Source: an uncultured bacterium
GTDB lineage: Bacteria > Oederibacteriota > Oederibacteriia > Oederibacteriales > Oederibacteriaceae
NCBI GenBank assembly: GCA_965112635.1
Contig: OZ218778.1
Coordinates: forward strand, 437,807 to 501,806
Length of the DNA stretch: 64,000 nt
Reading direction: 5' to 3'
Shown: positions 27,415 through 46,099 of the stretch, one piece after another
Position numbering within the stretch: the stretch's first letter is position 1
How the letters are laid out: each line of letters starts with the position of its first letter
Notes under the pieces: model-generated
The model's input: the letters and a program-made list of their open reading frames with translations, nothing else
The model's database searches: none
What the model was told of the DNA's origin: nothing
Position numbers and translations under genes: made by a program

Positions 27415-27433
27415 AAATATTATTCACAACCAG

Positions 27434-28594
27434 TCACATTCGACGAAAGCTAACAACAAATTCATCAGTATGTGCGTAAGGTTCAAATGTTTCTTCCAAA
27501 GAAAGGGGTAAAAGCTTAAGCCTCCTGATCACTTCCCAGCACTCAATGAATGAATCAAGCGTCCAAACATTGCAGTGGACATCATGATAATGATTATTTG
27601 ATAACAGATCGACAGCTGCCTGAAATGCTGATTTCAATTTTTCATCATTATAGGTGGAAGTTTTTACAGGCTTTGGTTCAATGTATGACATAAATGCTAT
27701 AAAATCAAACACCTGCTTGACCGAAGGGCGTTCCAGATTCCGTATGTAGGCATCCACTAGGTCTGATGGGGTGGACAGAGCGCGAAAATGGTCAAAAGTG
27801 CGTGTTTTCTCGGGAATCGCCAAATTGATCAGACCTCCTGGCTTAATGACCGAAGCGATCTGGGACAGCCATCCTATGGGGTTCGGGACATGCTCTATCA
27901 CATGTGCCGCAACGCAGTAATCAAAAGTTATATCCTGCGGGATCACATTTCGGATAGGCCCGCCGGACCAGATAAAATCAATATCGCAAATCTTGTCTAT
28001 ATCTACGTATATCGTTTGATTTGCCTTGTATTTTTTTATGAGACCGTCCCTGTCCGCATGGTCTACATATTTGACATTGGTTTTTTGTTTGGAGAGAAGC
28101 GGGCGGTCAAGCGGACCCAGCTCTATCCCAACCATGGTATCCAGGGATATTCCCCTCAATAGCCGCCTCAAACGCTCTTGATGCCAGGTGCATGGTGAAT
28201 TCACCAGATGCGCGCCATTGGGGAAACGGACTTCCAGGGTATCCGAGACGGTCAACGGTTCGGGGAAGTTGAAGTTAAAGCCAGCTTCCCGCGGCAATCC
28301 CGCCGCTGCAAGATCATCCCTGGAGTTATTTGGCGGCACCCGAGCCAGCAATTTACCGTTTAAAAAAAGGTCCACGGAGGATGGCTGTTTTTTTGAATCA
28401 ACCGCCCAGCCGGCTATATGGCTTTGGTGGCACATATCTACGTACCCCTGGTAACCGCCCTTATCCTCGGCTCCAAGCGGACGCTTGTTAAAGCTAAACG
28501 CGCTCAGTCCGGATTTGAAAGAAGATAACAATTTGCGTATTGTCCCTTTTTTGTGTTCAGTCATGATCAATCCTTTAACATGCGCCATTGACAT
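27434..28594 (-). CDS. Putative chain-terminating methyltransferase (WbdD-like position; divergent MTase fold with an N-terminal beta-rich domain)
   Basis: The C-terminal half has an MTase-like layout (GIELGPLD...; CVAAHVIEHVPNP...IKPGGLINLAIPE). The gene order wzm-wzt-this gene-polymerase mirrors E. coli O8/O9a wzm-wzt-wbdD-wbdA. The start is uncertain (28594 or 28564). Confidence 0.45.
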   Translation of the reverse strand: MSMAHVKGLIMTEHKKGTIRKLLSSFKSGLSAFSFNKRPLGAEDKGGYQGYVDMCHQSHIAGWAVDSKKQPSSVDLFLNGKLLARVPPNNSRDDLAAAGLPREAGFNFNFPEPLTVSDTLEVRFPNGAHLVNSPCTWHQERLRRLLRGISLDTMVGIELGPLDRPLLSKQKTNVKYVDHADRDGLIKKYKANQTIYVDIDKICDIDFIWSGGPIRNVIPQDITFDYCVAAHVIEHVPNPIGWLSQIASVIKPGGLINLAIPEKTRTFDHFRALSTPSDLVDAYIRNLERPSVKQVFDFIAFMSYIEPKPVKTSTYNDEKLKSAFQAAVDLLSNNHYHDVHCNVWTLDSFIECWEVIRRLKLLPLSLEETFEPYAHTDEFVVSFRRM

Positions 28595-29799
28595 GGAAGA
28601 TACGCAACCCCAAGGTTTCCCTTAACTTTTTCTGATTCTAAAACTATGAATGGAAAATGCTTATCCCAATGGTCATAACATATTGAACCGGTATAATTAT
28701 AAATAGCCGCCGTAAAATTATATCTCCCGGGTAAAAGGGGTAACGAATCGATCGAATATTCAACGGCTCCCTCCCCCTTAACAGTCGAAGTATTAAAATC
28801 ACTTATCTTGGTATTGGTACCATTGACATGGAACCCGTCTTCACGATGAATGGCCACACCGAACATAGGCTTTTCTATTTCTTTATGAGCAATATATTCA
28901 ATATGCACAGCAAAAGGTTCATTGGTTCTAAAAACATTACCCATGGTTCCATCACTTTTCACAAAATTGACGGCTGTAATTTCCATTTCTTTGTTCCCCC
29001 ATCGGTTCGGGACATTTTGATAATGCAGGGTGCGGCGGACAGCTTCGGCGTTGGTGTGCAAGAGTTGGTGATACGTGGCGATCACACTATTCGGCTCCCC
29101 GATCTTAAAGCATGCCCCCTGGTCCAGAAGACACACCTGGTCGCACATCTGCTCCACCGCATTGAGGTCGTGGGATACCAGCAGGATGGTCTTGCCGCTT
29201 TTCCTCAGGTCCCTTACCTTCTCAAGGCACTTGGCCTGGAAACTTTCGTCACCCACGGCAAGGATCTCGTCGATGATCAGGATATCGGGGACCACATGGA
29301 TGGCCACGGAAAAGGCCAGCTTCATGTACATGCCGCTGGAGTAGGTTCGGACCGGGTCGTCGATATACTCCCCCATCTCGGCGAACTCGACGATCTCGTC
29401 GAACTTGGCCTTGATCTGGTTTTTGGAGAGTCCCAGGATGATACCGTTGATGATCACGTTTTCCCGCCCTGATAATTCAGGATGGAATCCGGCTCCCAGC
29501 TCGATCAAAGCGGCGATATTGCCTTGGACCGTGATAGCGCCCTCGTCCGGCTTGAGAATGCCGCTGATCAGTTTGAGAAGGGTGCTTTTACCCGAACCGT
29601 TCCTGCCGATGATCCCAAGCGTGGTCCCTTTTTCGATTTGCAGAGTAACGTCCTTTAGGGCCCAAAGCAGATCCCTGCCAGTATCCTTTCGGGGATGCCA
29701 TAGGTCGTAAAGGATATAGGATTTAAGGGAGGTCATGATGGGCCGCCGTCCATGGCGGGAGAATTTTTTTGACACTCCTTTTATCTCGATACTGTGCAT
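28567..29799 (-). CDS. wzt: O-antigen/glycan ABC transporter ATP-binding protein with a C-terminal carbohydrate-binding domain
   Basis: Walker A GRNGSGKST, signature YSSGM, Walker B ILIIDE. An extra ~150-aa beta-rich C-terminal domain is typical of Wzt proteins that recognise a terminal glycan modification. Confidence 0.85.
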   Translation of the reverse strand: MHSIEIKGVSKKFSRHGRRPIMTSLKSYILYDLWHPRKDTGRDLLWALKDVTLQIEKGTTLGIIGRNGSGKSTLLKLISGILKPDEGAITVQGNIAALIELGAGFHPELSGRENVIINGIILGLSKNQIKAKFDEIVEFAEMGEYIDDPVRTYSSGMYMKLAFSVAIHVVPDILIIDEILAVGDESFQAKCLEKVRDLRKSGKTILLVSHDLNAVEQMCDQVCLLDQGACFKIGEPNSVIATYHQLLHTNAEAVRRTLHYQNVPNRWGNKEMEITAVNFVKSDGTMGNVFRTNEPFAVHIEYIAHKEIEKPMFGVAIHREDGFHVNGTNTKISDFNTSTVKGEGAVEYSIDSLPLLPGRYNFTAAIYNYTGSICYDHWDKHFPFIVLESEKVKGNLGVAYLPCQWRMLKD

Positions 29800-29802
29800 G
29801 GC

Positions 29803-30579
29803 CTACACTTCCTCCGCGAAAACGTCTTTTCGTGAATCAAAGAACATCAAGGCCAATACAAAGAAGACTAAAGTGAAAAGGGTCAGCAGGGCGAGACCCG
29901 TGAGGGAAGGCATCCGGTCATAAAAGAAAATATCATGGTAAGCCCCGATGAACCAAGCCATGGGGTTGTAGTTCAGCAGAAACTGATATTTGGCCGGGAT
30001 CATGCTCTCGGGATAGACCACCGGCGTGGCGAACATCCAGATCATAAGGAGATTGGGAACGATATGTATCAGGTCCCGGAACTGCACCACCAGGGAGGAA
30101 GTGATCAGGGTCAAACTAAAAGCAAAGACGAACTGGACCGCCATAATGAAGGGCAGGAGAAGCAGGATCCATGAAAATTTGATCCCAAAACAAGCCAAAA
30201 AGATCAAAAGAATAGGAAGGCTGAGCAGATAATGGATCATGGTCGAGGCCGTGGTGACCAGGGGAAATATCTCCGCGGGAAGGGACACTTTTTTGATCAG
30301 GCCTCCGTTGACCAGGATAGAGCTGGACCCCTCGGTCAGCGCCGACGAGAACCACGCCCAGGGCAGGATCCCGCACAGAAGATAGGCGGAAAAATGCTCC
30401 ATCTGTACCCGCATATATACGGAGAACACAAGCACATAGATCAGCATCAAAAGTAGAGGGTTGATGAAGGACCACAAAAATCCCAGGGAAGTGCCCCGGT
30501 ACCGCACCTTGAGCTCTTTCGCGATAAGCACCTGGGCCAGGCCGTAATACCTATAAAGCTGAAGGATGCGTTCTATCAC
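29803..30579 (-). CDS. wzm: ABC-2 type polysaccharide export permease
   Basis: 258 aa with six predicted TM helices and ABC-2 family features. Translationally coupled to wzt. Confidence 0.85.
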   Translation of the reverse strand: MIERILQLYRYYGLAQVLIAKELKVRYRGTSLGFLWSFINPLLLMLIYVLVFSVYMRVQMEHFSAYLLCGILPWAWFSSALTEGSSSILVNGGLIKKVSLPAEIFPLVTTASTMIHYLLSLPILLIFLACFGIKFSWILLLLPFIMAVQFVFAFSLTLITSSLVVQFRDLIHIVPNLLMIWMFATPVVYPESMIPAKYQFLLNYNPMAWFIGAYHDIFFYDRMPSLTGLALLTLFTLVFFVLALMFFDSRKDVFAEEV

Positions 30580-30657
30580 TGCACAACTCCTACCCTGTCA
30601 ATTTTTTATCGATTTTTCTAAATCCTGCAGCACTGTGCACGGGAGCAGATAAAAACC

Positions 30658-31659
30658 TTATGCGTTGTTCTTTAGATAGATGATCGTGCTTCCTTCTTCT
30701 TCAAATTTGAAATCAACTTCCAGAAGGCCTTTCAACGCTTTCCTCACCGCGGATTTTTTTGACGGGTCCACGATAAAGGTCAGAAATCCGCCGCCGCCGG
30801 CTCCGGCGATCTTGCCGCCATAGGCTCCGGCTTTGACGGCGCGGCTGTAAGCCTGATCGATGAACTGGTTGGACACTTGTTTTGAAAGCGACTTTTTCAA
30901 CTCCCAGCCTTGTCGCATGAGTTTTCCCAGCGCGGACAGCATATGCTTCTCAGGTTCATCGGAAATGATCTTCACGGCCCTATCCACCATGCGGTACATT
31001 TCCTTAAGATATTCATCGTTCCTTTTAGCCTGGGTCCGCTCTATCTGCTCATGGAGCACCTCATGAGCTAGGCGTGTTTGGCCGGTATAAAAAACCATCA
31101 GAGAGCTTTCCAGGAGCTTGCGTTTCTCCCGGGTAATGATGAGCGGCTGGACTTTATACTCTGAGCCGCTGAACCGGATGATATTGATCCCCCCATAGGC
31201 GGCGAGGATCTGGTCCTGGAAGCCAACGTTTTCCCTGAGCATTTCATGCTCAACATACAGGGCGTCTTTGGCCAGTTGGTCCTTGGAAACGACCTTGCCT
31301 TCTGAAGCATAAAGAGCATGGAGGAAACCAACCGTAAACGCCGAGGAGGACCCCAGGCCCGACCGGGCCGGGAGATCGGCGAAGATATGGATATCAAGAT
31401 TGCCGCCGATCTTCTTGAATTTCAGGCATTCCCTCACGCTGGGATGTTCGATCTCCTGGATCGAATTGACCAACTCAGCTTTGGAATACCCTACTCTTAT
31501 CTTATGGTCAAAAAAATCACTTAAATAATTGAGACTGATATAGATGTACTTATTAATCGTAGTCCCCAGAACGGCCCCTTCGTTCCGGGAGAAATACTGC
31601 TTGTAGTCTGTGCCGCCGCCAAAAAAACTGATGCGGACCGGTGTCCTGGAAATGATCAA
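30658..31659 (-). CDS. GHMP-family sugar kinase (HddA-like D-glycero-D-manno-heptose 7-phosphate kinase / fucokinase-like)
   Basis: GHMP motifs PVRISFFGGGTD and ARSGLGSSSA (ATP-binding). The size and N-terminus resemble HddA. Confidence 0.7.
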   Translation of the reverse strand: MIISRTPVRISFFGGGTDYKQYFSRNEGAVLGTTINKYIYISLNYLSDFFDHKIRVGYSKAELVNSIQEIEHPSVRECLKFKKIGGNLDIHIFADLPARSGLGSSSAFTVGFLHALYASEGKVVSKDQLAKDALYVEHEMLRENVGFQDQILAAYGGINIIRFSGSEYKVQPLIITREKRKLLESSLMVFYTGQTRLAHEVLHEQIERTQAKRNDEYLKEMYRMVDRAVKIISDEPEKHMLSALGKLMRQGWELKKSLSKQVSNQFIDQAYSRAVKAGAYGGKIAGAGGGGFLTFIVDPSKKSAVRKALKGLLEVDFKFEEEGSTIIYLKNNA

Positions 31660-31734
31660 TGTGCCTCCTTGGGCTCTTTGAGCCTCATCGTTCTATCTCG
31701 ACTCATCAATATAACACCAATTTTCATTGCCTGG

Positions 31735-32991
31735 CTACCCCTTAGGGCCTTTGCCCATCCGGTCCACCAATAACTCGGCAAAAACAAAAGAACAGGTAAA
31801 AGCAGGTGAAATGGAGTTCAAGACGTGGGTGGAATCCGGGGTCTGCTCGATGACGTAATCCATTTCCAGGGAGCGGGTGCGGATATTGACAAGCTGGGGC
31901 CTGATTCCGACCTTGGAGGACGGGATAAGGTCATCCACGGCCAGTTCCGGCACTAGCCGTTGGGCTGACCTGAAAAAATTCGATTTCAGGTATTTTTTGA
32001 TCTCCGTATGGACCATCATCCTGAAATGGTGCTCGTTCTTGATATACATTCCGGCCAGCTGCCAGAGTATGCCTACGGATTCCACGGGCCTTATGCCCTC
32101 CAAAATGCCGTAATTTTCGCGCCCAAAAGCCGGGATGGAGGTCGGACCCACGAAGACATCCTCCCCGATCAGCCTGGTCAAATGCACCCCGAGAAAAGGG
32201 AGGAACAGATTGGGCACCGGATAGATATTATTCCTAACCAGGGTGCTTTTCTCCGGACGCAGCTTGTAATAAAGGCCCTTGAACGGAAGCAGGGTATAGT
32301 CCCCGGCCAGGCCGAATCTTTTCGCTATCACATCCGCGTAAGCCCCGGCGCAGTTGAAAAGGTATCCGTATCCGACAGCCCGGGAAGGCGTATAAACCAT
32401 TTTCTCTTTGGGCTTAATTTTGATGACGGTCTGGTTAAAATGGATCTCCACTCCGTTGGCTTTGAGTATCTCTTGCAGTTTATTCAGGACCGCGTGGATA
32501 TCAATGACCGATGTGTCCGGGCAGAAAATACCTTTGCGAAAAGGCCCGGCATGCGGCTCCAGTTCCCTGACTCCCTTCTCATTCAGCTCCACGGCGTTTA
32601 TATGACTTTCTTTGGCGTTGACCAGCAGTTTTTGTATCACCGGCAGGTCCTGCTCGCTGGTCGCGATGATCACCTTACCCGAACGCTTGCAGGGGATCTG
32701 GTATTCCTGGGCGAAGTCGCGCATTCTGGACGCCCCCGCGGCGCATAATTTCGCTTTAAGAGTGCTGCTGGAGTAATAGATACCGGAATGAAGCACCCCG
32801 CTGTTGCGGCCGCTGGCATGGGCCCCCAAATAACTTTCTTTTTCCAGGACGGCGATTTTTGACCCAGGAAACCTTTTTCTTAACTCCAGAGCGGCGGCCA
32901 GGCCGATGATGCCCGCGCCGACGATAAGGTAATCGTAATTTAATGAGCCGGATACAGATATGGGCGCGGGAGCGGCTTGAGGTTTATCCAA
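31735..32991 (-). CDS. FAD-dependent oxidoreductase (LhgO / L-2-hydroxyglutarate oxidase-like family)
   Basis: Dinucleotide-binding GxGxxG (DYLIVGAGIIGLAAA) and overall similarity to the LhgO/DAO family. The substrate is unknown. Confidence 0.65.
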   Translation of the reverse strand: MDKPQAAPAPISVSGSLNYDYLIVGAGIIGLAAALELRKRFPGSKIAVLEKESYLGAHASGRNSGVLHSGIYYSSSTLKAKLCAAGASRMRDFAQEYQIPCKRSGKVIIATSEQDLPVIQKLLVNAKESHINAVELNEKGVRELEPHAGPFRKGIFCPDTSVIDIHAVLNKLQEILKANGVEIHFNQTVIKIKPKEKMVYTPSRAVGYGYLFNCAGAYADVIAKRFGLAGDYTLLPFKGLYYKLRPEKSTLVRNNIYPVPNLFLPFLGVHLTRLIGEDVFVGPTSIPAFGRENYGILEGIRPVESVGILWQLAGMYIKNEHHFRMMVHTEIKKYLKSNFFRSAQRLVPELAVDDLIPSSKVGIRPQLVNIRTRSLEMDYVIEQTPDSTHVLNSISPAFTCSFVFAELLVDRMGKGPKG

Positions 32992-33006
32992 GGAAGTCAG
33001 CCTGTT

Positions 33007-33945
33007 TCAAACGTTGCCGTACTTGGTATTTTTGATCATGGTATAACCTTTGATTAACTCGCCGATGCCGAAATCCAGGGAATGGGTAGTTTTAAAGCCT
33101 ACTTTCTCTATTTTTGCGTTAGAAACGATGTAATTCCGCTGGTCCGGGTCTTTGCCTACCGGAGCCTCCAAAAACACGAAGTCCGGAAGATGTTTTTTGA
33201 TCACCTCGCATAACTCTTTTTTGGAAACATTGGCCTCCGACAAACCCACATTATAGATTTGCCCTTTCATCTTTTCAAAATTAGCCAGGCCGAATTGGAA
33301 AACGCGGGATACATCCCGGATATGGACATAGTTGCGCTTAAAATGGGCTTCGAACAGGACCACGAACCGGTCATAGACCGCCCTGTAGGTGAAGTCATTG
33401 ACCAGCAGATCGATCCTCATTCTCGGAGACATACCGAATACCGTGGCCAGCCTGAAGCTGACGGCGTTGGGGTGTTGCATCAGCGCTTTTTCCACCTCCA
33501 CTTTTTCTATGGCGTACTGCGAGATCGGGTTCAGCGGCGAGGTCTCGTCGCAGTAATTATTCTTATCGCCCGTGCCGTAGGCGCTGTTCGTGGTCGGCAT
33601 CAAGACCCGCTGTTCCCTGCTCAAATTTTTCAGCATCATTAAAACAGCGTCGCGGTTTGTGGTCATAGCGCCGACCGGGTCCTGATTGCACAGGGGAGCC
33701 CCAACCAAAGCCGCGAGAGGAATGACGATATCGGCCTTCTTGATCAGGGGCAAAACCACCCTGTCCATTCTCACGTCGCCCCGGACCACGCTAAAGTTCG
33801 GGTCGACACATAACTGCGCCAGGCTGTTCTGGCCGTACAAAAAACTGTCCAGGACAGTGACTTTATGTCCCAGGGCCAGTAGTTCCGGCACCAGAATGGA
33901 CCCGATATAGCCTGCTCCACCCGTGACAAGGATGTTAGTACCCAC
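33007..33945 (-). CDS. NAD-dependent NDP-sugar epimerase/dehydratase (SDR family)
   Basis: VTGGAGYIGS Rossmann motif and YAIEK catalytic motif. Confidence 0.75.
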   Translation of the reverse strand: MGTNILVTGGAGYIGSILVPELLALGHKVTVLDSFLYGQNSLAQLCVDPNFSVVRGDVRMDRVVLPLIKKADIVIPLAALVGAPLCNQDPVGAMTTNRDAVLMMLKNLSREQRVLMPTTNSAYGTGDKNNYCDETSPLNPISQYAIEKVEVEKALMQHPNAVSFRLATVFGMSPRMRIDLLVNDFTYRAVYDRFVVLFEAHFKRNYVHIRDVSRVFQFGLANFEKMKGQIYNVGLSEANVSKKELCEVIKKHLPDFVFLEAPVGKDPDQRNYIVSNAKIEKVGFKTTHSLDFGIGELIKGYTMIKNTKYGNV

Positions 33946-33978
33946 GATTCTTCCTCCGATCTAAAAAAAGAATGATAA

Positions 33979-34926
33979 CTATTTTCTGGATATTTTAGCA
34001 ACATCCTCTGGCTTCAGGTAAGCCTTTTCTTCGTAAAACCATTTTATTGTGCTTTCCAAACCTTCCCGTAAAGACATGAGTTTATAGGAGGGCAATAAGG
34101 ATTTCGCCTTATCGATAATTAAGCACTTTGACACCACTCCCACATACCGGGTGGTATCATATTGGATTTTATCGGCCGGATAATCAACGATCTCGCAGAT
34201 ATGCCGGGCAAACTCACGGATGGAATATTCTTCACCTGCCCCTATATTAACAAGATCATTATCTCGGGTCGCATTAAGCTGGCAAAGCAGCCGGATAAAG
34301 TCCGACAAATGGACCAACTCCCGCTTTTGGTGCCCGTCTCCCCATAATACAACAGGCTCTTTAAACTCCTTGCCCCGGATGATCTTCCGGATCAGGTCAA
34401 AAATGAAATGCATCTGCCGGCCGTCGTTATGATAGCCAGAACCATACAGGGTGGATGGGATCGCGCAAAGGTAGCGGAGGCCGTATTGTTTGTTCAGGGA
34501 GAGTAAACCCTGATAAAGCATGCGCTTGGTCATGGCATAGGTGTAAAGGCTTGCGATGGGCTCCCCAAGAAGGTAGTTTTGTTCTTTTAATTCCATACCC
34601 GGCGCGTAAGAACAACTTGTCCCCATGCAGATCATTTTAGCTTGTGGCTGGTATTGCTGCCACCAGGCCAGGACATGGGTATTGATCAGTTGGTTGATGA
34701 CCCATTGTTCTCCGGGATGTTTCAGACAAAAATCCCCGGCCTGCGTCCACGCCGCGAGATGGAATATTTGATCAAAAGTTCCCTTGACGGTTTTTTCCAG
34801 GCTGCCCTGTATGGTCAGATCGCAGTTCTTGGAATTAAGCCGGGTGACACTATGCCCTTCTTGGTCTAAATATTTACAGAGGGATTTCCCTAAAAAACCA
34901 GAGGCGCCGGTTACAACGATCTTCAT
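33979..34926 (-). CDS. GDP-L-fucose synthase-like GDP-4-keto-6-deoxyhexose epimerase/reductase
   Basis: VTGASGFLG..., IFHLAAW, MGTSCSYAPG (compare Fcl GSSCIYP) and YAMTK catalytic motif. Adjacent to the second C-methyltransferase, with gmd in the same block. Confidence 0.7.
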   Translation of the reverse strand: MKIVVTGASGFLGKSLCKYLDQEGHSVTRLNSKNCDLTIQGSLEKTVKGTFDQIFHLAAWTQAGDFCLKHPGEQWVINQLINTHVLAWWQQYQPQAKMICMGTSCSYAPGMELKEQNYLLGEPIASLYTYAMTKRMLYQGLLSLNKQYGLRYLCAIPSTLYGSGYHNDGRQMHFIFDLIRKIIRGKEFKEPVVLWGDGHQKRELVHLSDFIRLLCQLNATRDNDLVNIGAGEEYSIREFARHICEIVDYPADKIQYDTTRYVGVVSKCLIIDKAKSLLPSYKLMSLREGLESTIKWFYEEKAYLKPEDVAKISRK

Positions 34927-34928
34927 GA

Positions 34929-36131
34929 TTAGTTCTCTTTCGGATTGACGGGAAAATAGAATTGTATCCCCCGCTCTACGAGGTTCTTATTGTTTTCCAA
35001 TATTTCTTTTTTAAAATTCCACGCCAGGACATAATAGACATCGGGTAGTTCTTTAAGCTCTTTCTCTATGACCACCGGAATATGCATACCTGGTGAATAT
35101 AGGTTGCGCCTCAATTCGTTTTTTTCCACCAGACAGTCGATCATATCTGTCCCCACTCCGAAGTAATTCAGCATGGTATTACCTTTGACGGGAGCGCCAA
35201 AGCCGAATATTTTTTTCCCAGAACGCTTGGCCTGGCTTAAAAACTCCAGATTTTCTTTTTTCATCCTCTGGATGCGGCGGTAAAACTCCTGATAGGTTTC
35301 GATGCGATTGAACTCCGCCTCTTCTTCCAATTGCCGCATTTTTTTAAGATTTTGGCTTATCTCTTTTTTGCCGCGGTGCGTGACATACCCCACGATGGAG
35401 CCGCCATGGATCGGGTGCAGTTGGGCGTCGAACATTTCTAGTCCATGTCGGCTCAACAGGATCTCAATGGTTTTCAGGGTATAGTAAAGCAAGTGTTCAT
35501 GATAGACCTGGTCAAAAGCCAGGTTCTCCACTATATTTTTCATATATAGGAATTGAACAACAAAAACACCGTTTTCTTTAAGACCCTCTCTGATTCCATC
35601 CGTCACGGAATGAAGCTCTTCCAGATGGAAGAAAACCCCGGCAGCATTGATAACATCGAATTTCCTTCCGATCTGTTTCATGGTCTCAAGATTGAAAAAC
35701 TGGTTCAGGGTGGGCACGCCTGCGTCCACTGCTATTTTGGCAGTGGTCTTGGAGGATTCCACCCCCAGAACCTCATAACCTAGCTTCTGGAAATGTTTGA
35801 GCTGGGTACCGTCATTGGAGCCTATATCCAGGACCGACTTGGCCGGGGTCGTCTTAAAAAACTTCTCATCCACTTCCACAGCCGTCCTGCGAAAATGTTC
35901 ACCTAGTGATTTGGTCACTCCGGAAAGATAGGTATGGTCCCCGAACATGATCTCTTTTTTGACCGTGTAATCAAGCTGCACCGTGGAGCACTTATGGCAA
36001 AACAGAAGATGGAGAGGATAAAAAGGCTCCTTGCCTACTTCCTCTTTTTTCAAGAAATGGTTGCACCAGGGTTGAGACCCCAGGTCTACAACAAGCTCTA
36101 GTTTGTCGGAATCACAGACACGGCAGTTCAT
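34929..36131 (-). CDS. NDP-hexose C-methyltransferase (TylCIII/EvaC type), copy 2, in the GDP-sugar branch
   Basis: The architecture matches 19528..20763: Zn-binding CRVCDS...CHKC, MTase motif I VLDIGSNDG, and the C-terminal C-methyltransferase domain. Confidence 0.75.
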   Translation of the reverse strand: MNCRVCDSDKLELVVDLGSQPWCNHFLKKEEVGKEPFYPLHLLFCHKCSTVQLDYTVKKEIMFGDHTYLSGVTKSLGEHFRRTAVEVDEKFFKTTPAKSVLDIGSNDGTQLKHFQKLGYEVLGVESSKTTAKIAVDAGVPTLNQFFNLETMKQIGRKFDVINAAGVFFHLEELHSVTDGIREGLKENGVFVVQFLYMKNIVENLAFDQVYHEHLLYYTLKTIEILLSRHGLEMFDAQLHPIHGGSIVGYVTHRGKKEISQNLKKMRQLEEEAEFNRIETYQEFYRRIQRMKKENLEFLSQAKRSGKKIFGFGAPVKGNTMLNYFGVGTDMIDCLVEKNELRRNLYSPGMHIPVVIEKELKELPDVYYVLAWNFKKEILENNKNLVERGIQFYFPVNPKEN

Positions 36132-36186
36132 GATTTTCTCCCATGAAACAGGATAGTGTGTTTTAGTTCGGATTTTAAAATTGCTT

Positions 36187-37125
36187 TTATCTTGATGACT
36201 TTTTCAGGATCAAATGCATCCCGTAACCATCATCAGGATGCCAGTCCTTTAAGCCTAACCCGTTGCCCCTGACCATATCCTGGGTTTCAAAAGGATGATT
36301 GGTTTCCAGCGTAAATCCCCGGTCCAGAAAGTATTTTTTCCACCATTCGCTGGATTTCAAAGTCCTGTGATAGATACCTCCGATGACAGGATTCTCATCG
36401 GGGAGCAGATCAATGGAACAAACAAAATACCCTCCGGGTTTTAAATGAGTCCTGATATTTCTTACCAATTGCTCCAGATCAGGCTCGGCGATATGTTCGA
36501 CCACTTCCCACGCTGTGATCATGTCAAAGAGCGCTTTTTTATTATGACCTGTATAAACCTGGAAGGGTTTTGATAGGTCACAGGTAAAAAGATGATTGGG
36601 TATGGTATCCCATTCACCGGACCGGAACCTTCGGGAAACATCCGAACCCTCAAGACCTATGGCTGTATAGCCATCCTCCAAAATGGATTTTACGAAACCG
36701 CCTCCCGAACAGCCCAGGTCAAGCAGATGAATATCTTCACGATATCCAAATAACTCATAAAGCTTTAAATTGAATCTATAGTTTTTGGAATTATCATGCA
36801 TCGTACCGCGCGGAAATTTATGGTCATCGCTTGTATAAGCCACGGGGTAATTGGTTTTTATTTTGAAAATTTCTTGTGGATTTAATTTATAGTACAAGAA
36901 ATAGTTGTTTTTCCATAATGTATTGGCCAACTGCTCAAATTTGGTCAAACGCCGCGCCGATATCAGGCGGTCAAGCAGTGATAGGACAAAAAAGAAAAGA
37001 CCCGTCACCACCGGCGGTTTGTGGATCAACAGCCACCCTTTGAGGATCCTGTAATATTTGTTCAATAAACGGATCAAAACCAGTTTCAAGGATGCATCCT
37101 TCCATTCAGAAATCCCTAGCTTCAT
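36187..37125 (-). CDS. Class I SAM-dependent methyltransferase with an N-terminal membrane anchor
   Basis: An N-terminal TM segment, then motif I LLDLGCSGGGF and post-I WEVVEHIAEPD. Confidence 0.7.
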   Translation of the reverse strand: MKLGISEWKDASLKLVLIRLLNKYYRILKGWLLIHKPPVVTGLFFFVLSLLDRLISARRLTKFEQLANTLWKNNYFLYYKLNPQEIFKIKTNYPVAYTSDDHKFPRGTMHDNSKNYRFNLKLYELFGYREDIHLLDLGCSGGGFVKSILEDGYTAIGLEGSDVSRRFRSGEWDTIPNHLFTCDLSKPFQVYTGHNKKALFDMITAWEVVEHIAEPDLEQLVRNIRTHLKPGGYFVCSIDLLPDENPVIGGIYHRTLKSSEWWKKYFLDRGFTLETNHPFETQDMVRGNGLGLKDWHPDDGYGMHLILKKSSR

Positions 37126-37143
37126 TCTAATACCTGACTTGTC

Positions 37144-39660
37144 CTATTCAACCTTTATATTAGCCAGCCAGGACTGGCCCCATGGCGCCCCGGGGTTTCT
37201 GCCCATCGTCGCAATGGATAGAGTACCCGCACCCTGACCTTTGGGTAAAGATATTTTAAATGCCTGGCGCCCCTGGTCTTTTTTGAATTGCACAGGCATG
37301 AGCATGCGCTCAAAAAGTACCTTTGACACCGGACCTTTCTTCATGAACGAGACCTTGAACTTCACACCGTCTGTCTGCCCGCCGTCGGAATAGGCGCTCG
37401 GCAAAAGACCAAAATCCCCGCTCAGGGTCTTTTCCGTACCGTTTAGATGAAATCGGATTTCTCCAGGGGCATGGACCAGGAGCACTTGGTCATCCCCGAT
37501 TTCATGTATATCAACGGGGAACGGGGAATCAATGAGATAAGGAGCGATATTGAAACCGGGATAGAAGTGCAGTAACAGATCACGACCGATTTTCATGTTT
37601 GCTTCACGAGGCCTATCCGCCTCATAAAAAGTCACCTGGAACTTGTCTGTTTTATAAAATCTGGCCATTCTCGGCTCAACTTTCAAATCCAATGACCGCA
37701 CTTCCCGCGGGCTGCGGCCATACAAGATCCTGACCAGATCGGCATTGTCCCTGAGCATCCAGCTCACCATGACCGGCATCCGCATCAGGGTGGGTATGAT
37801 CCGGTAGTTCCACTCAGCATGTTCGCCGTTACACTTCATGGTTAAAGAAAGCATGGGTGGCTTATAAAATACAGACCTCAGTTTGCCAAGCCAGTTCAGG
37901 TCCAGCTGAGCCGTGGCATAAAGGACCTTATCCGGAGCTGTTACGGGCAAAGAAACGGGGTTATCGGGAAGAAGGGCGGCGGAAGATATCATTTTTAGTT
38001 CCCTGCCCGGGTCGGGCCGGGCTTTTTGCCTGAATAATAAAAATCCCTTTTCAGCTAGGACGGGTTCGTAAATATCCAGGATAGCTCTCAGGGCCAGGGC
38101 GTCATCCTGCGCCAAAAGCCGGTAGTCAATGGTCGCCATCTTAAATAAAAAATATTTCGGCCGCTTACCGGGGTCAAGAACATGATCTCGGTTTATCCTT
38201 TCCAAGGTGTCGTTAAAAGTATTAAAAGTCACGGACATGGGGAGGGGACGATAATTAAGCCCGTTGAGCATGACAACACCCTCTTCACAGCCGAAAAAAT
38301 CTATGGTTTCGTTCCCCACTATTTTTCGTACTAGGGGAAGATTGAATTTTTGCCTGTTGATATCCAATCTTTTATCCAGGTCTTTTTTTAGTTCCCTGAT
38401 GCCGATGACATGGGCCACATTATCTTTCAAGGTAATGAAGGGCTGGCTCATGAGATGTCCCAGGTTCATCCTGCCTTCCGTGACCCCGATCAGCGCAAAA
38501 AAGATGCACGCAAGGCAGAGCACTGGCTCAACATAGCTCTTGAAACGCATGCGGCTGCTGCGCCAATCGCTTGGTGGCCCCGCCTGAAGGCCATTGTTTC
38601 CCCTGACAACCAGATCGATGAGGGCGGCAATGACAGCGAACCTGAAAAAAAATTGCACATGCGCATCGGCTCTGACGAATCCATGTTTCCAATCTAGAAA
38701 GGTGCAAAATAACAGCAACAGGCATATCATAACTTTTTGCTTGTTTTGATAGTTGGTTATCCCTGTCCAACATATCAATAGGATCAGAAAAAATAGGGTG
38801 GCTATCCCTGTATTGAAGATATTATTCCCTTCTTGCAAAGACATAGCATCGTTATATCCAGAGGTCATGTATTTGATCCCCATGAAATATTGTGGAATGT
38901 GTAAAAGATTTTGTCCGGCAAAAACCCAGGACACCACAAAAACAGACGCAAAAGCGGCCAAGAGACCTGGTATGAACCGTTTTCGGCCCTGCAAAACATA
39001 AAGTGTGCAGACGAGAGCCAGGGTGAATCCTGCCATGGTAAGGAGAGTCCCCTTACAAAGCGGAAGAAACCCTAAAAAACCGGCTACGAGATAGTTGGGC
39101 CATGGTCTTTCGTTTATTTTTGGGTGCTGAATGAGAAAAATACCGGCAAAAAGGATGCAGGAATCGTAGTAAAGATCAGGCGGCCATCTTAAGGCAATGA
39201 ACGGAAGCAACCATATCCATCTCAAAAATCGAAGCGGGGATTCAAGGATGAACATAATGACCAGAAATGCCAGGGCTCCCTGCACCAAAAGTTCCAAGAT
39301 CATGCGGGTCCAGAATAAATATCCGGCATAGACATATCCGAACATGACAAATCCGTATGGTCCTATGATATGCAAAACATCGGTGCCATATTGAAAATGA
39401 TTGAAAGTAAAGTAGGAGTACGCCGCAGCATTGGAAGAATCAAGAGAATTGTCCAGCACCAGATAGGGAGAGTTGTAAAAGAAGAGAGTCAAAACAAACC
39501 ATAACAATACTACGGCTGAACCGGTAATGACTTTATGACGAAAAAGGTTCACAGGAAACAATCCTGAATATTTTTGTTTCATCTTTCCCTCAAACTCCTC
39601 TTTCATATTGTTATTTGATCCGCATATGAACCCATTAGGACTAATCCAAGCTGGTTTCAC
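37144..39660 (-). CDS. 838-aa polytopic membrane protein with a large C-terminal extracytoplasmic domain (candidate GT-C-like glycosyltransferase / oligosaccharyltransferase)
   Basis: About 13 hydrophobic helices fill the N-terminal 400 aa, followed by a soluble ~430-aa domain. No recognisable family motif such as WWDYG is present. The call rests on architecture and locus context only. Confidence 0.4.
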   Translation of the reverse strand: MKPAWISPNGFICGSNNNMKEEFEGKMKQKYSGLFPVNLFRHKVITGSAVVLLWFVLTLFFYNSPYLVLDNSLDSSNAAAYSYFTFNHFQYGTDVLHIIGPYGFVMFGYVYAGYLFWTRMILELLVQGALAFLVIMFILESPLRFLRWIWLLPFIALRWPPDLYYDSCILFAGIFLIQHPKINERPWPNYLVAGFLGFLPLCKGTLLTMAGFTLALVCTLYVLQGRKRFIPGLLAAFASVFVVSWVFAGQNLLHIPQYFMGIKYMTSGYNDAMSLQEGNNIFNTGIATLFFLILLICWTGITNYQNKQKVMICLLLLFCTFLDWKHGFVRADAHVQFFFRFAVIAALIDLVVRGNNGLQAGPPSDWRSSRMRFKSYVEPVLCLACIFFALIGVTEGRMNLGHLMSQPFITLKDNVAHVIGIRELKKDLDKRLDINRQKFNLPLVRKIVGNETIDFFGCEEGVVMLNGLNYRPLPMSVTFNTFNDTLERINRDHVLDPGKRPKYFLFKMATIDYRLLAQDDALALRAILDIYEPVLAEKGFLLFRQKARPDPGRELKMISSAALLPDNPVSLPVTAPDKVLYATAQLDLNWLGKLRSVFYKPPMLSLTMKCNGEHAEWNYRIIPTLMRMPVMVSWMLRDNADLVRILYGRSPREVRSLDLKVEPRMARFYKTDKFQVTFYEADRPREANMKIGRDLLLHFYPGFNIAPYLIDSPFPVDIHEIGDDQVLLVHAPGEIRFHLNGTEKTLSGDFGLLPSAYSDGGQTDGVKFKVSFMKKGPVSKVLFERMLMPVQFKKDQGRQAFKISLPKGQGAGTLSIATMGRNPGAPWGQSWLANIKVE

Positions 39661-39736
39661 GGGGAATTAAGAACATACGGCACAGGCCCGCATCTACATA
39701 TTGTCATTCAGTTAGTGATCCTAGATGCCTGCTCGA

Positions 39737-40495
39737 TTACTTCCTGTAGCTTTCCAAAACCTTAAAAACACCCAAACAGGCGCGAAAACCTTCAAAAAAA
39801 TATCGGACCGGAGGGAGACCCCGGCTTTTACCGTATTTTCTTTCTCGATGCGTAATATAAATTTGTTTTATGGAATAATTCTCGAATTGGCATCTCAAAA
39901 ATAGTTCGGTGTTCAACAGGGTGGGCATACAATTCACCTGCGGCAGAATTTCTTTAATGACCTCTGCTTTTATCAATCGGAAAGCTGAATTGATATCAAA
40001 ATAATTGACATGAGCGATCATACATGTAATCTGATTAAAAAGTCCTGAAAAAAAACGCCTGAAGAAAGAATCTTTGCGCCCGAACTTGGCCCCATGAACA
40101 ACGTCATAGGCCGGTATATACTTAGCAAGCTTCCAAAAATCAGCCGCCACGTATTGGCCGTCCGAATCGGTAAAAAAAACAAGAGGACACCTGGCCTCGC
40201 TATAAAGTCTTCTAGCCGAAGGGCCGAATCCATCCTTGGTATCGTGATAATTCACTCGGATAAAAGGGTATTTTTTACACAAACGCGCCAGGATCTCCCT
40301 GGTGCCGTCCGTGCTGAGAGCCTCGTCAAAAACAAATTCCGAGCCCTTGGGAAGATATTGAAAAACGTCCCTCACCCATTCCTCAACCACGTCTTCTATG
40401 ATATCCGCCTCGTTGTGCACGGGCATCAGAACCGACACGGGAAGACTTATCCTTGTTTTACTGGTAGCATGGTATTTCTTCAAGTAAAACCTCAT
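39737..40495 (-). CDS. Family 2 glycosyltransferase
   Basis: SVLMPVHNEADII...DEALSTDGT...FFTDSDGQ motifs. Confidence 0.75.
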   Translation of the reverse strand: MRFYLKKYHATSKTRISLPVSVLMPVHNEADIIEDVVEEWVRDVFQYLPKGSEFVFDEALSTDGTREILARLCKKYPFIRVNYHDTKDGFGPSARRLYSEARCPLVFFTDSDGQYVAADFWKLAKYIPAYDVVHGAKFGRKDSFFRRFFSGLFNQITCMIAHVNYFDINSAFRLIKAEVIKEILPQVNCMPTLLNTELFLRCQFENYSIKQIYITHRERKYGKSRGLPPVRYFFEGFRACLGVFKVLESYRK

Positions 40496-40620
40496 CCATT
40501 AATTTTTTATGGATCAATTACATAATTTTAATTGCTTGGTTTAAATATTCAATATTATTCAACTAACAAAAGAACCTTATGGGCAATTACTTACGCCTCC
40601 CCCCGGAGAGAACTTGCTGC

Positions 40621-42066
40621 CTACCTGGTTCTCCCCGAAAAGAAAGATGGAACGATGTACTTGAGACTTTTCAATCCGAAAACGATGGTTTCCCACCAAC
40701 CGCGGTTCTCCACCCTGATATAGACGTAGCCATACATGATGGCGAACCAGAGCCGGAATAGCGGATTGGGCGGCAGATGGATCAATTTTTTTATGATCGG
40801 GAACGACCACGGGATAAGGACCGCGGTCTGAAAAAAATATTGGAGGTTCTCCACTTCCCTGGCATGAGGAAGTTTGAGCGGGGTGCCGGCATGGTAGGTT
40901 CCAATCACATCGTCCGGCCCGTAATTGGGATCAAGAAGTCCCTGTCTTTTGCTCTGCTCAGCCAGCTCAGTCCCCGGGTATGGGATGAAGACCGCGATCT
41001 GCGGGTAATCCGTGCCTATCTTGATATTGATCTCCACGGTCTCCAGGGCTTGTTCCAAAGTCTCATCCGGCAGTCCCACCATGTTGAAAGTCCGGAAGAT
41101 GATATGGTTCTCCTTGAGATAACCCGCTACCCGAATGATCTGTTCATCGGTCACGCCCTTACGCAAGAGACCGTTGCGGAGTTTCTCATTACCGGTCTCC
41201 AGACCGAACAATGCGCTCCTGCATCCAGCCCTGGCGATCATCTTGACAGTTTCCTCGTCCGTCAAATCCGCCCGGATCAGACAGGTGAAAGGGATTTTAA
41301 TTTCTTTTTCGTATATTTCGGTCAGCTCTCTGATCCATTGCTTGTTCATGATGAAAGTGTCGTCAATGAAAAAAACATTTTTAGTCCTTATCCTTGAGGT
41401 GACCTCATGGACCTCGTCCATGAGGTTCCGGGGAGATCGGAAACGGACAGGTTTGCCTTTGCCCCTGTAAAGATCGTTATAGACATGATTGAAACAGAAT
41501 GTGCAGTTGAAAGGACATCCCCTGCCTGCCCTGAAAACCTGTGTCTGCGTGTTCAGGACTTTCGGGTAACGACCGTAAAGTTCTCTCCAGGGAAATGGGA
41601 GCGAATCCATATCCGCTACGAGAGGCCTCACATCGTTCTTTACGATCTCTCCGTTCTTTTTTTTGACCCAAAAATTCGCGATAGCGTCCAGGGGTTTGCC
41701 TTTATCAATGGCTTCAGCCAGCTCCACGATGGCGTTATCGGCTTCGCCCCGGCAGATGATGTCCAAACCCTCCTTTTCGATCACCTCAGGAACGAAGGTT
41801 GGATGAGCTCCACCCATGACAGTCAAGGCATCGGGAAATTCTTTCTTCAATTCCTTGGCCATATTCACAGCCCAGTAATGCCCGCCTGTCATGGCTGAAA
41901 AAGCCAGAACTTGAGGCTTCTCTTTCCTCAATATAGGGATGAAATCTCCTGGTTTCTCGCCGATCAAGGCATCCACCTGGTGCCCGTGCTTTTTCAGCAT
42001 GGCCGCCAAGTACATGGGCCCGAAGAACGGATATCCAATGTCTTGAAGAAAAATGAATTTTGCCAT
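40621..42066 (-). CDS. Cobalamin-binding radical SAM enzyme (class B radical SAM; probable methyltransferase or other radical tailoring enzyme)
   Basis: An N-terminal B12-binding Rossmann-like domain, then the radical SAM CxxxCxxC cluster (GRGCPFNCTFC) and a downstream TIM-barrel region; 481 aa. Confidence 0.85.
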   Translation of the reverse strand: MAKFIFLQDIGYPFFGPMYLAAMLKKHGHQVDALIGEKPGDFIPILRKEKPQVLAFSAMTGGHYWAVNMAKELKKEFPDALTVMGGAHPTFVPEVIEKEGLDIICRGEADNAIVELAEAIDKGKPLDAIANFWVKKKNGEIVKNDVRPLVADMDSLPFPWRELYGRYPKVLNTQTQVFRAGRGCPFNCTFCFNHVYNDLYRGKGKPVRFRSPRNLMDEVHEVTSRIRTKNVFFIDDTFIMNKQWIRELTEIYEKEIKIPFTCLIRADLTDEETVKMIARAGCRSALFGLETGNEKLRNGLLRKGVTDEQIIRVAGYLKENHIIFRTFNMVGLPDETLEQALETVEINIKIGTDYPQIAVFIPYPGTELAEQSKRQGLLDPNYGPDDVIGTYHAGTPLKLPHAREVENLQYFFQTAVLIPWSFPIIKKLIHLPPNPLFRLWFAIMYGYVYIRVENRGWWETIVFGLKSLKYIVPSFFSGRTR

Positions 42067-42140
42067 CTAAACTCCGATCGTTTTTTCTTACCGGGACGCC
42101 CGTGGGGGACCCGCTTTGGGGCACTGACTTAACAGCTTTT

Positions 42141-43118
42141 CTAGCCTTTGCCCTGCACCAGGGCCAGGTCCGCGTCCACCATCATGGTCACCAATTCCTT
42201 CAATTTAACCTTTGGCTTCCAGCCCAGGATCTTCCTGGCCTTGGAATAATCGCCCTGCAACAGGTTGACCTCGGCGGGCCTGTAAAAATCCTTGTCCACC
42301 TTGACGTATTTTTTCCAGTCCAGGCCCGCATGGCCGAAAGCAAGCTGGACAAACTCCCTGACGCTGTGCGTTTCTCCGGTGGCGATCACATAATCATCCG
42401 GCTTGCTCTGGTGCAGCATCAGCCACATGGCCTCGATGTAATCCCTGGAAAAACCCCAGTCCCGTTTCGCTTCCAGGTTGCCCAGCCTCAGCTCACGGGC
42501 CAGCCCGCATTTGATCTGCGCGACCGCGTGGGTGATCTTGCGCGTCACGAACTCAAAACCTCTCCGGGGAGATTCGTGGTTGAACAGGATGCCGCTGCAG
42601 CAGAACATGCCGTAACCTTCCCGGTAATTGCGGGTCAGATCAAAACCAGCGACCTTGGATATGCCGTAGGGAGACCGGGGATGGAACGGGGTATCCTCGT
42701 TCTGGGGAATCTCCCTGGCTTTGCCGAACATTTCACTGGAGGCGGCAAAATAAAACTTGCACTTCGGAGCCGATTCCCTGATGGCGGTAAGAATATGATG
42801 GGTGCCGTTGATGTTCGTATTGAGGGTGGAGAACTCGTCCTCAAAGGAATAGCTCACGAAACTCTGGGCCGCCAGATGGTAGCATTCATCGGGCTTTATC
42901 TTGAGGATGACCTTGAACAGGCTGGGGAAGCTTTCCAGGGACCCGGCATGCAGGGTGATCTTGTTTAAAATATGCCTAATTCTCCACATCTGGTGTTCCG
43001 GGTCTTCCAAAGCGACCCGCCTGACGATCCCATGGACCTGGTAACCTTTTTTAAGCAAGAATTCTGATAAATAAGAGCCGTCCTGGCCGTCAATTCCCGT
43101 GATCAGAGCCTTTTTCAT
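42141..43118 (-). CDS. gmd: GDP-mannose 4,6-dehydratase
   Basis: ITGIDGQDGSYL..., YHLAAQS, SSEMFG and YGISK give near-canonical Gmd conservation over the full length. Confidence 0.9.
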   Translation of the reverse strand: MKKALITGIDGQDGSYLSEFLLKKGYQVHGIVRRVALEDPEHQMWRIRHILNKITLHAGSLESFPSLFKVILKIKPDECYHLAAQSFVSYSFEDEFSTLNTNINGTHHILTAIRESAPKCKFYFAASSEMFGKAREIPQNEDTPFHPRSPYGISKVAGFDLTRNYREGYGMFCCSGILFNHESPRRGFEFVTRKITHAVAQIKCGLARELRLGNLEAKRDWGFSRDYIEAMWLMLHQSKPDDYVIATGETHSVREFVQLAFGHAGLDWKKYVKVDKDFYRPAEVNLLQGDYSKARKILGWKPKVKLKELVTMMVDADLALVQGKG

Positions 43119-43164
43119 ATCTTCTCAGTTCCCCTCCCCGTAAGTTTTGCTGGTCTGTGCGCGA

Positions 43165-43225
43165 TCTTTAAAAACTAGAATTACATTTTAGCCTGTTTTG
43201 AGGGTATAAACTACCCCAAACCTGC
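43165..43225 (+). repeat. Copy 1 of a ~60-bp dispersed repeat with core ttttagcctgttttgRgggNRtaaactaccccaaac
   Basis: Compared directly with 46100-46165; the core contains a conserved hairpin (ttggggg...ccccaa). Confidence 0.5.
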
Positions 43226-43316
43226 ACTTTTGCCACGGTACCCACTAAGATTTTTAGATAGAGATGTGATAAAATTTGTTCAATTGTACTAAAACAAACT
43301 TGGATATTGCTAGGAG

Positions 43317-43628
43317 ATGGGAAAAATGCCTGTTCAAATTACCGTTGACGACAAAAAAATAGCCGATTTCTGCGTGCGGAACCATATCAGGAAACTATCC
43401 TTTTTCGGATCGGTGTTGGAGGAAAAATTCAGGCCGGACAGCGATATTGACGTTTTGTTGGAATTCGATACCCAATATCCTGTTGGTTTCAGGATCATTG
43501 ACATGGAAGAAGAGCTTTCCCGTCTGTTGGACGGCCACAGGGTGGATATTGTAAATGCTAAATACCTTAATCCCCGCATGAGGAACAATGTGTTGGCCGG
43601 GGCGGAAATGCACTATGCCCAGGGATGA
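43317..43628 (+). CDS. Minimal nucleotidyltransferase (MNT) antitoxin of a HepT/MNT module
   Basis: Pol-beta-type NTase motif GS...DSDIDVLLEF. Confidence 0.8.
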   Translation: MGKMPVQITVDDKKIADFCVRNHIRKLSFFGSVLEEKFRPDSDIDVLLEFDTQYPVGFRIIDMEEELSRLLDGHRVDIVNAKYLNPRMRNNVLAGAEMHYAQG

Positions 43629-43953: not shown

Positions 43954-43984
43954 GCGCTGCGGCACTGTGCCGCCTCCGTGTCAT

Positions 43985-44013: not shown

Positions 44014-44025
44014 AATCAACCCCTT

Positions 44026-46075: not shown

Positions 46076-46099
46076 ATCTTTCCCTTTTTCCTTGCAGAC

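Follow-up and report, generated by a model that had tools for sequence, protein, structure and literature searches.

Positions 33979..36131 of a 64,000-nucleotide stretch of contig OZ218778.1, from an uncultured bacterium of the Oederibacteriaceae (assembly GCA_965112635.1; the whole stretch is hereafter called the window), hold two minus-strand genes, not one, and the window itself forms one long minus-strand run of polysaccharide genes. The two genes encode a predicted sugar C-methyltransferase, named CMT2 here, and a short-chain dehydrogenase/reductase (SDR) related to the GDP-fucose synthase Fcl. An earlier interpretation made from the letters alone (the sequence-only reading) had placed CMT2 in a pathway derived from GDP-mannose; three genes lying directly downstream of the Fcl-like gene, and absent from that reading, change the interpretation. 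These genes, and the CMT2 paralogue CMT1 found elsewhere in the window, are as follows.

34929..36131, minus strand: CMT2, predicted TylCIII/TcaB9-type S-adenosylmethionine (SAM)-dependent sugar C-3 methyltransferase, 400 amino acids (Pfam and PDB homology)
33979..34926, minus strand: Fcl-like SDR, putative NADPH-dependent C4-reductase, 315 amino acids (NCBIfam, PDB)
33007..33945, minus strand: Cj1427-like putative GDP-heptose C4-dehydrogenase, 312 amino acids (PDB 6vo6/6vo8)
31735..32991, minus strand: L-2-hydroxyglutarate oxidase-like flavin adenine dinucleotide (FAD) enzyme, 418 amino acids (NCBIfam NF008726)
30658..31659, minus strand: HddA-like GHMP sugar kinase, 333 amino acids (NCBIfam, PDB)
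19528..20763, minus strand: CMT1, C-methyltransferase paralogue of the CDP branch (same Pfam architecture as CMT2)

The gaps separating CMT2, the Fcl-like gene, the Cj1427-like gene, the oxidase gene and the kinase gene are 2, 33, 15 and 75 nt, all on one strand. A scan of 27000..46500 for promoters and terminators returned the same counts as shuffled sequence and does not inform the operon boundaries.

CMT2 is composed of three parts, namely an N-terminal Zn-binding domain (Methyltransf_13, PF08421, 4.4e-23), a class I SAM methyltransferase core (PF13489, PF08242, PF08241) with VLDIGSNDG as motif I, and a C-terminal domain (Methyltransf_14, PF08484, 3.4e-51) covering profile positions 1-159 of 160. 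It aligns end to end with the PDB structures of MtfC (4rv9, E 1e-66), TcaB9 (3ndi, E 2e-54) and KijD1 (5t64). In an alignment of 85 CMT2-family members with CMT1, MtfC and TcaB9, the Zn-binding residues Cys3, Cys6, Cys45 and Cys48 match the cysteines of MtfC and TcaB9 and are kept in at least 83 of the 85 members, and His169, Tyr210, Glu212 and His213 (H181, Y222, E224 and H225 of TcaB9) in at least 84. Four of the five TcaB9 active-site residues are thus present, the fifth being a family-specific change: where TcaB9 has Tyr76, and CMT1 and MtfC likewise a tyrosine, 83 of 85 members have a histidine (His66 in CMT2). Residue numbers and active-site roles for TcaB9 (Tyr76, His181, Tyr222, Glu224 and His225) follow the mutant structures 4e2w-4e31. 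Judged by these features, CMT2 is a complete TylCIII/TcaB9-type C-methyltransferase, presumably methylating C3 of a nucleoside diphosphate (NDP)-4-keto sugar; an enzyme with this chemistry needs a 4-keto sugar as substrate. CMT2 shares with TylCIII, MtfC, TcaB9 and KijD1 the Zn ribbon, the SAM-binding Rossmann domain, the C-terminal domain, the four cysteines, the SAM motif and the His/Tyr/Glu/His set. It differs from the MtfC/TcaB9-type enzymes in being only 29-31% identical to them, and in further changes, such as Leu to Trp22, beside the replacement of Tyr76. Whereas the TylCIII group acts on dTDP-2,6-dideoxy sugars and is encoded in antibiotic clusters, CMT2 lies in a cell-surface polysaccharide locus with a putative GDP-heptose context and belongs to a family unusually conserved across phyla (67-76%). 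When CMT2 was searched against 1.84 billion representative proteins, 3385 representatives were returned at E <= 1e-30, with relatives grading from 56% to 33% identity and no clean boundary to the clade.

The CMT2 neighbourhoods of 80 species were compared over up to 10 kb on each side, using tblastn with the window proteins and an unbiased clustering of all open reading frames (ORFs); the clustering covered 83 loci, to which the kinase, nucleotidyltransferase, GmhA and GmhB counts refer. The CMT2 orthologues, with 67-76% identity, come from Cyanobacteria, Verrucomicrobiota, Nitrospirota, Planctomycetota, Chloroflexota, Bacteroidota, Proteobacteria, Armatimonadota and Patescibacteria. An Fcl-like gene is found near CMT2 in 48 of the 80 loci, a Cj1427-like gene in 36 (often directly upstream of CMT2), and both in 31. 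The clustered loci further include a GHMP kinase (about 38 loci, 40-67% identity), a 240-residue HddC-like nucleotidyltransferase (31), GmhA (21) and GmhB (14), and the NCBIfam labels obtained for representatives of these neighbours are HddC or mannose-1-phosphate guanylyltransferase, GmhA, GmhB and L-2-hydroxyglutarate oxidase. Orthologues of the HddA-like kinase sit next to the HddC-like, GmhA and GmhB genes. Compact operons such as gmhB-hddA-hddC-cj1427L-CMT2-fcl occur in two of the loci (L075 and L071; loci are given by L numbers where they must be told apart). The order in Pseudanabaena biceps is wzm-wzt-oxidase-cj1427L-hddA-...-CMT2-fcl-gmhA-gmhB, and a Methylomirabilota ("Rokubacteria") locus reads hddA-gmhA-cj1427L-CMT2-fcl, with homologues of a family 2 glycosyltransferase (GT2) and a 312-residue methyltransferase of the window, and another C-methyltransferase, upstream. 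Cultured carriers of the full cassette include Pseudanabaena biceps PCC 7429, Nostoc sp. FACHB-110 and Anabaena minutissima FACHB-250. In 30 loci a Cj1427-like gene is present and there is no 4,6-dehydratase of any type, so that no source of a 4-keto sugar other than the Cj1427-like gene is visible in them.

The Fcl-like protein has GDP-L-fucose synthase as its best NCBIfam match, scoring 126 bits against a cut-off of 500, and its best PDB matches are GDP-fucose synthases (E 1e-25 to 1e-19), its scores with solved Fcl-family structures being only about 54-90 bits. In about 45 loci the start of its orthologue (54-70% identity) falls at -10 to +15 nt relative to the CMT2 stop codon. From these scores and this coupling, the gene is judged to be a dedicated partner of CMT2 and not an ordinary fucose synthase, an assignment that the sequence-only reading had named as fatal to its own proposal. 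The GxSC and YxxxK motifs are kept in the family, which retains the Ser/Thr-Tyr-Lys triad and a cysteine matching an acid/base residue of epimerisation in Escherichia coli GMER; the GMER-matching histidine is not clearly conserved. Inversion at C5 by the Fcl-like enzyme is possible but uncertain, and epimerisation at C3 is impossible once C3 is quaternary.

The Cj1427-like protein aligns without gaps over residues 2-311 with PDB 6vo6/6vo8, which we take to be Campylobacter jejuni Cj1427 (E 4e-105, 355 bits, about 56% identity), the next PDB match reaching only 72 bits. Cj1427 is a GDP-heptose C4-dehydrogenase with a ping-pong mechanism, in which alpha-ketoglutarate serves as oxidant and L-2-hydroxyglutarate is the product; the enzyme binds NADH tightly and re-oxidises it with alpha-ketoglutarate, and the 4-keto product is then epimerised and reduced by Fcl-family C4-reductases (PMC10680097). 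The gene that follows encodes a protein scoring 336.5 bits with the L-2-hydroxyglutarate oxidase family NF008726 (cut-off 299), and this assignment fits the alpha-ketoglutarate/L-2-hydroxyglutarate chemistry of Cj1427 directly, suggesting a putative recycling role. L-2-hydroxyglutarate oxidase genes stand beside a Cj1427-like gene in the window and in about eight related loci, among them L085, L035, L045, L049, L083 and L044. Two subtypes of the oxidase occur in the cassettes; they share only 32% identity, and each scores above the cut-off (535 bits in L085, 348 bits in L083). No paper describing an L-2-hydroxyglutarate oxidase associated with heptose genes was found in the literature. The last gene of the block encodes a kinase with D-glycero-D-manno-heptose 7-phosphate kinase HddA as its best NCBIfam match (151 bits, below the cut-off) and heptose kinases as its best PDB matches (4n3o, 3k85 and WcbL 4usk).

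Together, these genes are consistent with a route in which the Cj1427-like enzyme would oxidise a GDP-heptose at C4, its bound NAD+ being regenerated by conversion of alpha-ketoglutarate to L-2-hydroxyglutarate, which the adjacent oxidase would turn back into alpha-ketoglutarate. CMT2 would take the C3 proton beside the 4-keto group by means of His213, Glu212 and Tyr210 and transfer a methyl group from SAM to C3, and the translationally coupled Fcl-like enzyme would reduce C4, possibly after inversion at C5, to give a GDP-3-C-methyl-heptose, the most likely product on the evidence of gene content. The sugar might then be attached by the GT2 and an 838-residue membrane protein of the window, via a polyprenyl phosphate carrier, to a polysaccharide exported by Wzm/Wzt. 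An even chance is given to the proposal that a compact, widespread cassette for GDP-heptose modification has CMT2 as its C-3 methyltransferase. It is suggested more tentatively, at slightly below even, that the cassette found across phyla makes a branched-chain heptose, GDP-3-C-methyl-heptose, which is not described as a natural sugar. A similar reserve applies to its composition, for which HddA, HddC, GmhA, GmhB, a Cj1427-type dehydrogenase, CMT2 and the Fcl-like reductase are proposed, sometimes with an L-2-hydroxyglutarate oxidase of its own. CMT2 is very probably tied to a GDP-sugar branch, the carrier being deduced from the gene families around it. The sequence-only reading had predicted a GDP-6-deoxy-C-methyl-hexose; the GDP carrier finds support here, whereas a Gmd source and a 6-deoxy product appear unlikely, Gmd being near CMT2 in 4 of 80 genomes and the Cj1427-like gene being contiguous with the CMT2/Fcl-like pair.

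The capsular GDP-heptose pathway of C. jejuni, with HddA/HddC, the C4-dehydrogenase Cj1427, Cj1430-type epimerases and Cj1428-type Fcl-family C4-reductases, is the closest characterised parallel. The proposed route would likewise oxidise a GDP-heptose at C4, modify it and reduce C4 again, with a kinase and a reductase of the same families. It differs in that the modifying step would be a SAM-dependent C-methylation in place of epimerisation or C3-dehydration; in addition, the Fcl-like reductases of the CMT2 cassette form a separate subfamily and a dedicated L-2-hydroxyglutarate oxidase is encoded. The survey of the C. jejuni pathway mentions no C-methyltransferase, the word 'methyltransferase' having 0 occurrences in it (PMC10680097). 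If the proposal is correct, C-methylation would join epimerisation, 6-deoxygenation, 3-deoxygenation and O-methylation among the known modifications of GDP-heptose, and many environmental bacteria and cyanobacteria would be predicted to bear a new branched sugar on their surfaces. The proposal would also provide a genomic rationale for the alpha-ketoglutarate-dependent mechanism of Cj1427-type enzymes, since a dedicated oxidase is encoded beside them, and a ready enzyme set for C-branched heptose nucleotides. For annotation, a TylCIII-like gene near gmd need not imply a 6-deoxy sugar.

Several observations weigh against this proposal. The scores of the kinase and the HddC-like nucleotidyltransferases fall far short of the equivalog cut-offs set for HddA and HddC. 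The equation of 6vo6/6vo8 with Cj1427 is our own assumption, the database name being only 'Putative sugar-nucleotide epimerase/dehydratease', and no literature linking PDB 6VO6 to Cj1427 was found. Literature searches likewise turned up neither a natural 3-C-methyl-heptose nor a C-methyltransferase acting on GDP-heptose. Of the genes for GDP-heptose supply, the window holds only the HddA-like kinase: GmhA, GmhB and a short HddC-type gene were not found anywhere in its 64 kb, and the sole guanylyltransferase candidate, a ManC-like gene, lies about 28 kb off beside a frameshifted phosphomannomutase (PMM) gene. Seventeen related loci carry the CMT2/Fcl-like pair with no Cj1427-like gene in the stretch examined, and two of them (L061 and L062) have a CDP- or dTDP-type 4,6-dehydratase instead, so the pair may be modular. 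A further 27 loci, mostly from unicellular cyanobacteria, show no partner within 10 kb. Lastly, a Gmd gene is present in the window, on the same strand and 6 kb upstream of CMT2, and neither Rmd, Fcl nor any other reductase of its own accompanies it in the window. The genes concerned are the following.

36187..37125, minus strand: class I SAM methyltransferase, 312 amino acids (Pfam Methyltransf_23, _12, _11)
37144..39660, minus strand: membrane protein, 838 amino acids (hydropathy scan)
39737..40495, minus strand: GT2, 252 amino acids (Pfam Glycos_transf_2)
40621..42066, minus strand: B12-binding radical SAM enzyme, 481 amino acids (Pfam B12-binding and Radical_SAM)
42141..43118, minus strand: Gmd, a short-type GDP-mannose 4,6-dehydratase, 325 amino acids (PF16363, TIGR01472, PDB)
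5594..6640, minus strand: ManC-like sugar-1-phosphate nucleotidyltransferase with LbH domain, 348 amino acids (NCBIfam)

The presence of Gmd gives most substance to an alternative in which CMT2 receives a GDP-4-keto-6-deoxy sugar from Gmd, either as the sole route or in parallel to the heptose route, an explanation regarded as unlikely although it ranks ahead of the other alternatives. The Gmd of the window is a good one (PF16363, 5e-123; TIGR01472, 406 bits against a cut-off of 415; PDB Gmd structures 1n7g and 1rpn, E about 1e-110), it has no finishing enzyme of its own, and a candidate of the Fcl/GMER family follows CMT2 by 2 nt, as such genes accompany CMT2 in 48 of 80 loci. The epimerases and reductases of the C. 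jejuni heptose pathway also accept 4-keto-6-deoxy substrates derived from GDP-mannose (PMC7949155). A pathway of this kind, combining Gmd, the TylCIII-like CBU_0691 and a GMER-like reductase, was proposed in silico for GDP-beta-D-virenose in Coxiella burnetii (PMC3539893; see also PMC3204966); as in the window, a TylCIII-type C-methyltransferase is there combined with GDP-sugar enzymes in an O-antigen locus, and it is essentially the pathway predicted by the sequence-only reading. Unlike CMT2, CBU_0691 was reported to be 42-44% identical to TylCIII, EryBIII and AviG1 and is thus closer to the dTDP-type enzymes, and whereas the Coxiella route starts at Gmd and leads to a 6-deoxy sugar, the conserved partner of CMT2 is a C4-dehydrogenase that would keep the C6/C7 side chain. 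What weighs against Gmd is its distribution and position. A Gmd with at least 45% identity is near CMT2 in only 4 of the 80 genomes, and in the three Bacteroidota cases a canonical Fcl, 27-28% identical to the Fcl-like protein of the cassette, follows Gmd and would serve it. In the window, Gmd, the Fcl-like gene and the C-methyltransferase gene had been described as one block; all three are real, but Gmd is not adjacent, four unrelated genes (about 6 kb; the B12-radical SAM enzyme, GT2, the 838-residue membrane protein and the methyltransferase) lying between, whereas the Cj1427-like, oxidase and kinase genes are contiguous with the CMT2/Fcl-like pair.

The supply of GDP-mannose for such a route is likewise equivocal. 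Both manB and manC exist in the window, as the sequence-only reading had said, but they lie about 28 kb downstream of CMT2 in the direction of transcription, not upstream, and manB is frameshifted in the assembly. This PMM/phosphoglucomutase gene (4148..5580, minus strand) is split into an ORF at 4366..5580 with domains I-III and an ORF in another frame at 4148..4354 with the domain IV signature (RGSGTEPLLRLY), as a result of either an assembly indel or decay to a pseudogene. The ManC-like protein scores 297 bits as mannose-1-phosphate guanylyltransferase (cut-off 440) and 147 bits as HddC (cut-off 300).

The same two genes, with the absence of GmhA, GmhB and HddC from the window, lend some weight to a second alternative, in which GDP-mannose is the substrate oxidised by the Cj1427-like enzyme and GDP-3-C-methyl-mannose the product of the module. 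The corresponding sugar, 3-C-methyl-D-mannose, is natural and occurs in some Helicobacter pylori O-chains (PMC12961483, PMC4205683), a description of its biosynthesis not having been found. This possibility is considered less probable than a Gmd-fed route, since the contiguous block includes an HddA-like kinase, which relatives pair with GmhA, GmhB and an HddC-like enzyme, none of them needed for GDP-mannose, and since the literature describes Cj1427, the characterised homologue, as a dehydrogenase acting on GDP-heptose. That CMT2 instead acts on a CDP- or dTDP-4-keto-6-deoxyhexose or on a non-sugar, its neighbourhood reflecting general clustering of glycan genes, would agree with the exclusive use of dTDP-sugars by its biochemically characterised relatives, with the rmlABCD genes and CDP-glucose branch of the window, with the dehydratases of L061 and L062 and with the stand-alone cyanobacterial copies that lack visible partners, but is improbable given the very consistent coupling to an Fcl-family reductase and a Cj1427-type dehydrogenase across phyla and the presence in the CDP branch of a methyltransferase of its own, CMT1.

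CMT1 and CMT2 share the three-part architecture, with matching Pfam domains, and are 35% identical over their full length. This bears out the description of CMT2 as a second, divergent TylCIII-type C-methyltransferase and, as judged from this low identity, the two are divergent paralogues and not products of a recent duplication, the other outcome that the sequence-only reading had named as fatal. CMT1 is nearer to the characterised enzymes (308 bits with MtfC, against 228 for CMT2) and is flanked by RfbF (TIGR02623, 467 bits), a CDP-glucose 4,6-dehydratase (TIGR02622), an RmlC-like epimerase and a reductase. The sequence-only reading had regarded it as unusual for one locus to combine two C-methyl branches that use different nucleotide carriers; this is a fair description of the window, CMT1 standing with CDP genes, but the arrangement is not unique, two C-methyltransferase genes also occurring within 10 kb in L084 and L076. 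The second C-methyltransferase of L084 is only 26% identical to CMT1. The CDP-glucose 4,6-dehydratase gene (20760..21910, minus strand) is itself split over two frames, an ORF at 20930..21910 matching TIGR02622 positions 1-262 and an ORF at 20760..21410 matching positions 244-352. Two frameshifted sugar genes, this one and the PMM gene, suggest either that the locus is decaying or that long reads introduced indel errors. With the full rmlA-rmlC-rmlB-rmlD set for dTDP-L-rhamnose at 57091..60494 (minus strand), the sugar branches encoded in the window use three nucleotide carriers, dTDP, CDP and GDP.

Among the genes between CMT2 and Gmd, the 312-residue methyltransferase has homologues with 37-56% identity in about ten CMT2 loci and may O-methylate the same sugar or glycan. 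The 252-residue GT2 resembles polyprenyl-phosphate glycosyltransferases; it matches PgfS, dolichyl-phosphate hexose transferase, AglJ and ArnC weakly in NCBIfam, and homologues with 48-67% identity occur in L038, L050, L069 and L084. The 838-residue protein has no Pfam or NCBIfam match; a hydropathy scan places about eight transmembrane helices in its N-terminal part and a large soluble domain at the C-terminus. It may be GT-C-like, a likeness of layout only, and a role in transfer is suggested by its position beside the GT2. The idea that it is shared with the Methylomirabilota locus L084 was rejected, no similarity being detectable. The Rho protein of the window is 81-83% identical to NC10/Methylomirabilota proteins. 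Another multi-span membrane protein, of 984 residues and with a YfhO-like C-terminus (15163..18117, minus strand), lies near the CDP branch, as the 838-residue protein lies near the GDP branch, and small GT2 genes are found at 10421..11131 and 39737..40495; a membrane protein and a GT2 near each C-methyl branch are reminiscent of two separate polyprenyl-phosphate-sugar decoration systems.

The B12-binding radical SAM enzyme encoded directly after Gmd has HpnJ, BchE and PhpK-type methylases as its best family matches, all below their cut-offs. Homologues with 46-64% identity (L086, L087 and L088) stand beside GT9 heptosyltransferases and the ADP-heptose genes GmhA, GmhB and HldE, and the one in L087 is near a GMC oxidoreductase like that at 44026..45633 of the window. 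The enzyme may represent a third, radical, glycan-modifying activity connected with heptose. A separate module of Gmd and the B12-radical SAM enzyme was considered and rejected, as the homologues are not beside Gmd.

Intact CMT2 orthologues (72-75%) are also found in reduced genomes, namely those of UCYN-A4 (L055) and of the spheroid bodies of Epithemia/Rhopalodia diatoms (L043/L046/L047/L053); conservation of CMT2 across phyla, at 67-76%, is strong enough for it to have been retained in the UCYN-A and spheroid-body genomes. In these loci, as in L019, L032 and other Crocosphaera loci, there are no Cj1427-like, Fcl-like or kinase genes within 10 kb. There, CMT2 forms a conserved block with a GT2 and a methyltransferase of the FkbM type, and two large membrane proteins and a WecG/TagA transferase are encoded beside this block.

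Elsewhere in the window, two small overlapping plus-strand ORFs (103 and 121 amino acids; 43317..43953), between Gmd and the GMC oxidoreductase gene, resemble, by eye, an antitoxin of the nucleotidyltransferase type (motif DSDIDVLLEF) and a toxin of the HEPN/DUF86 type. A low-GC island at 46000..53900 (38-39%, against about 48-52% elsewhere) encodes a CoiA-like nuclease, a TaqI_C-like specificity domain and three ORFs that match no family, followed by a Mutator-family transposase (52655..53887, plus strand), and separates the rml genes from the rest of the polysaccharide region.

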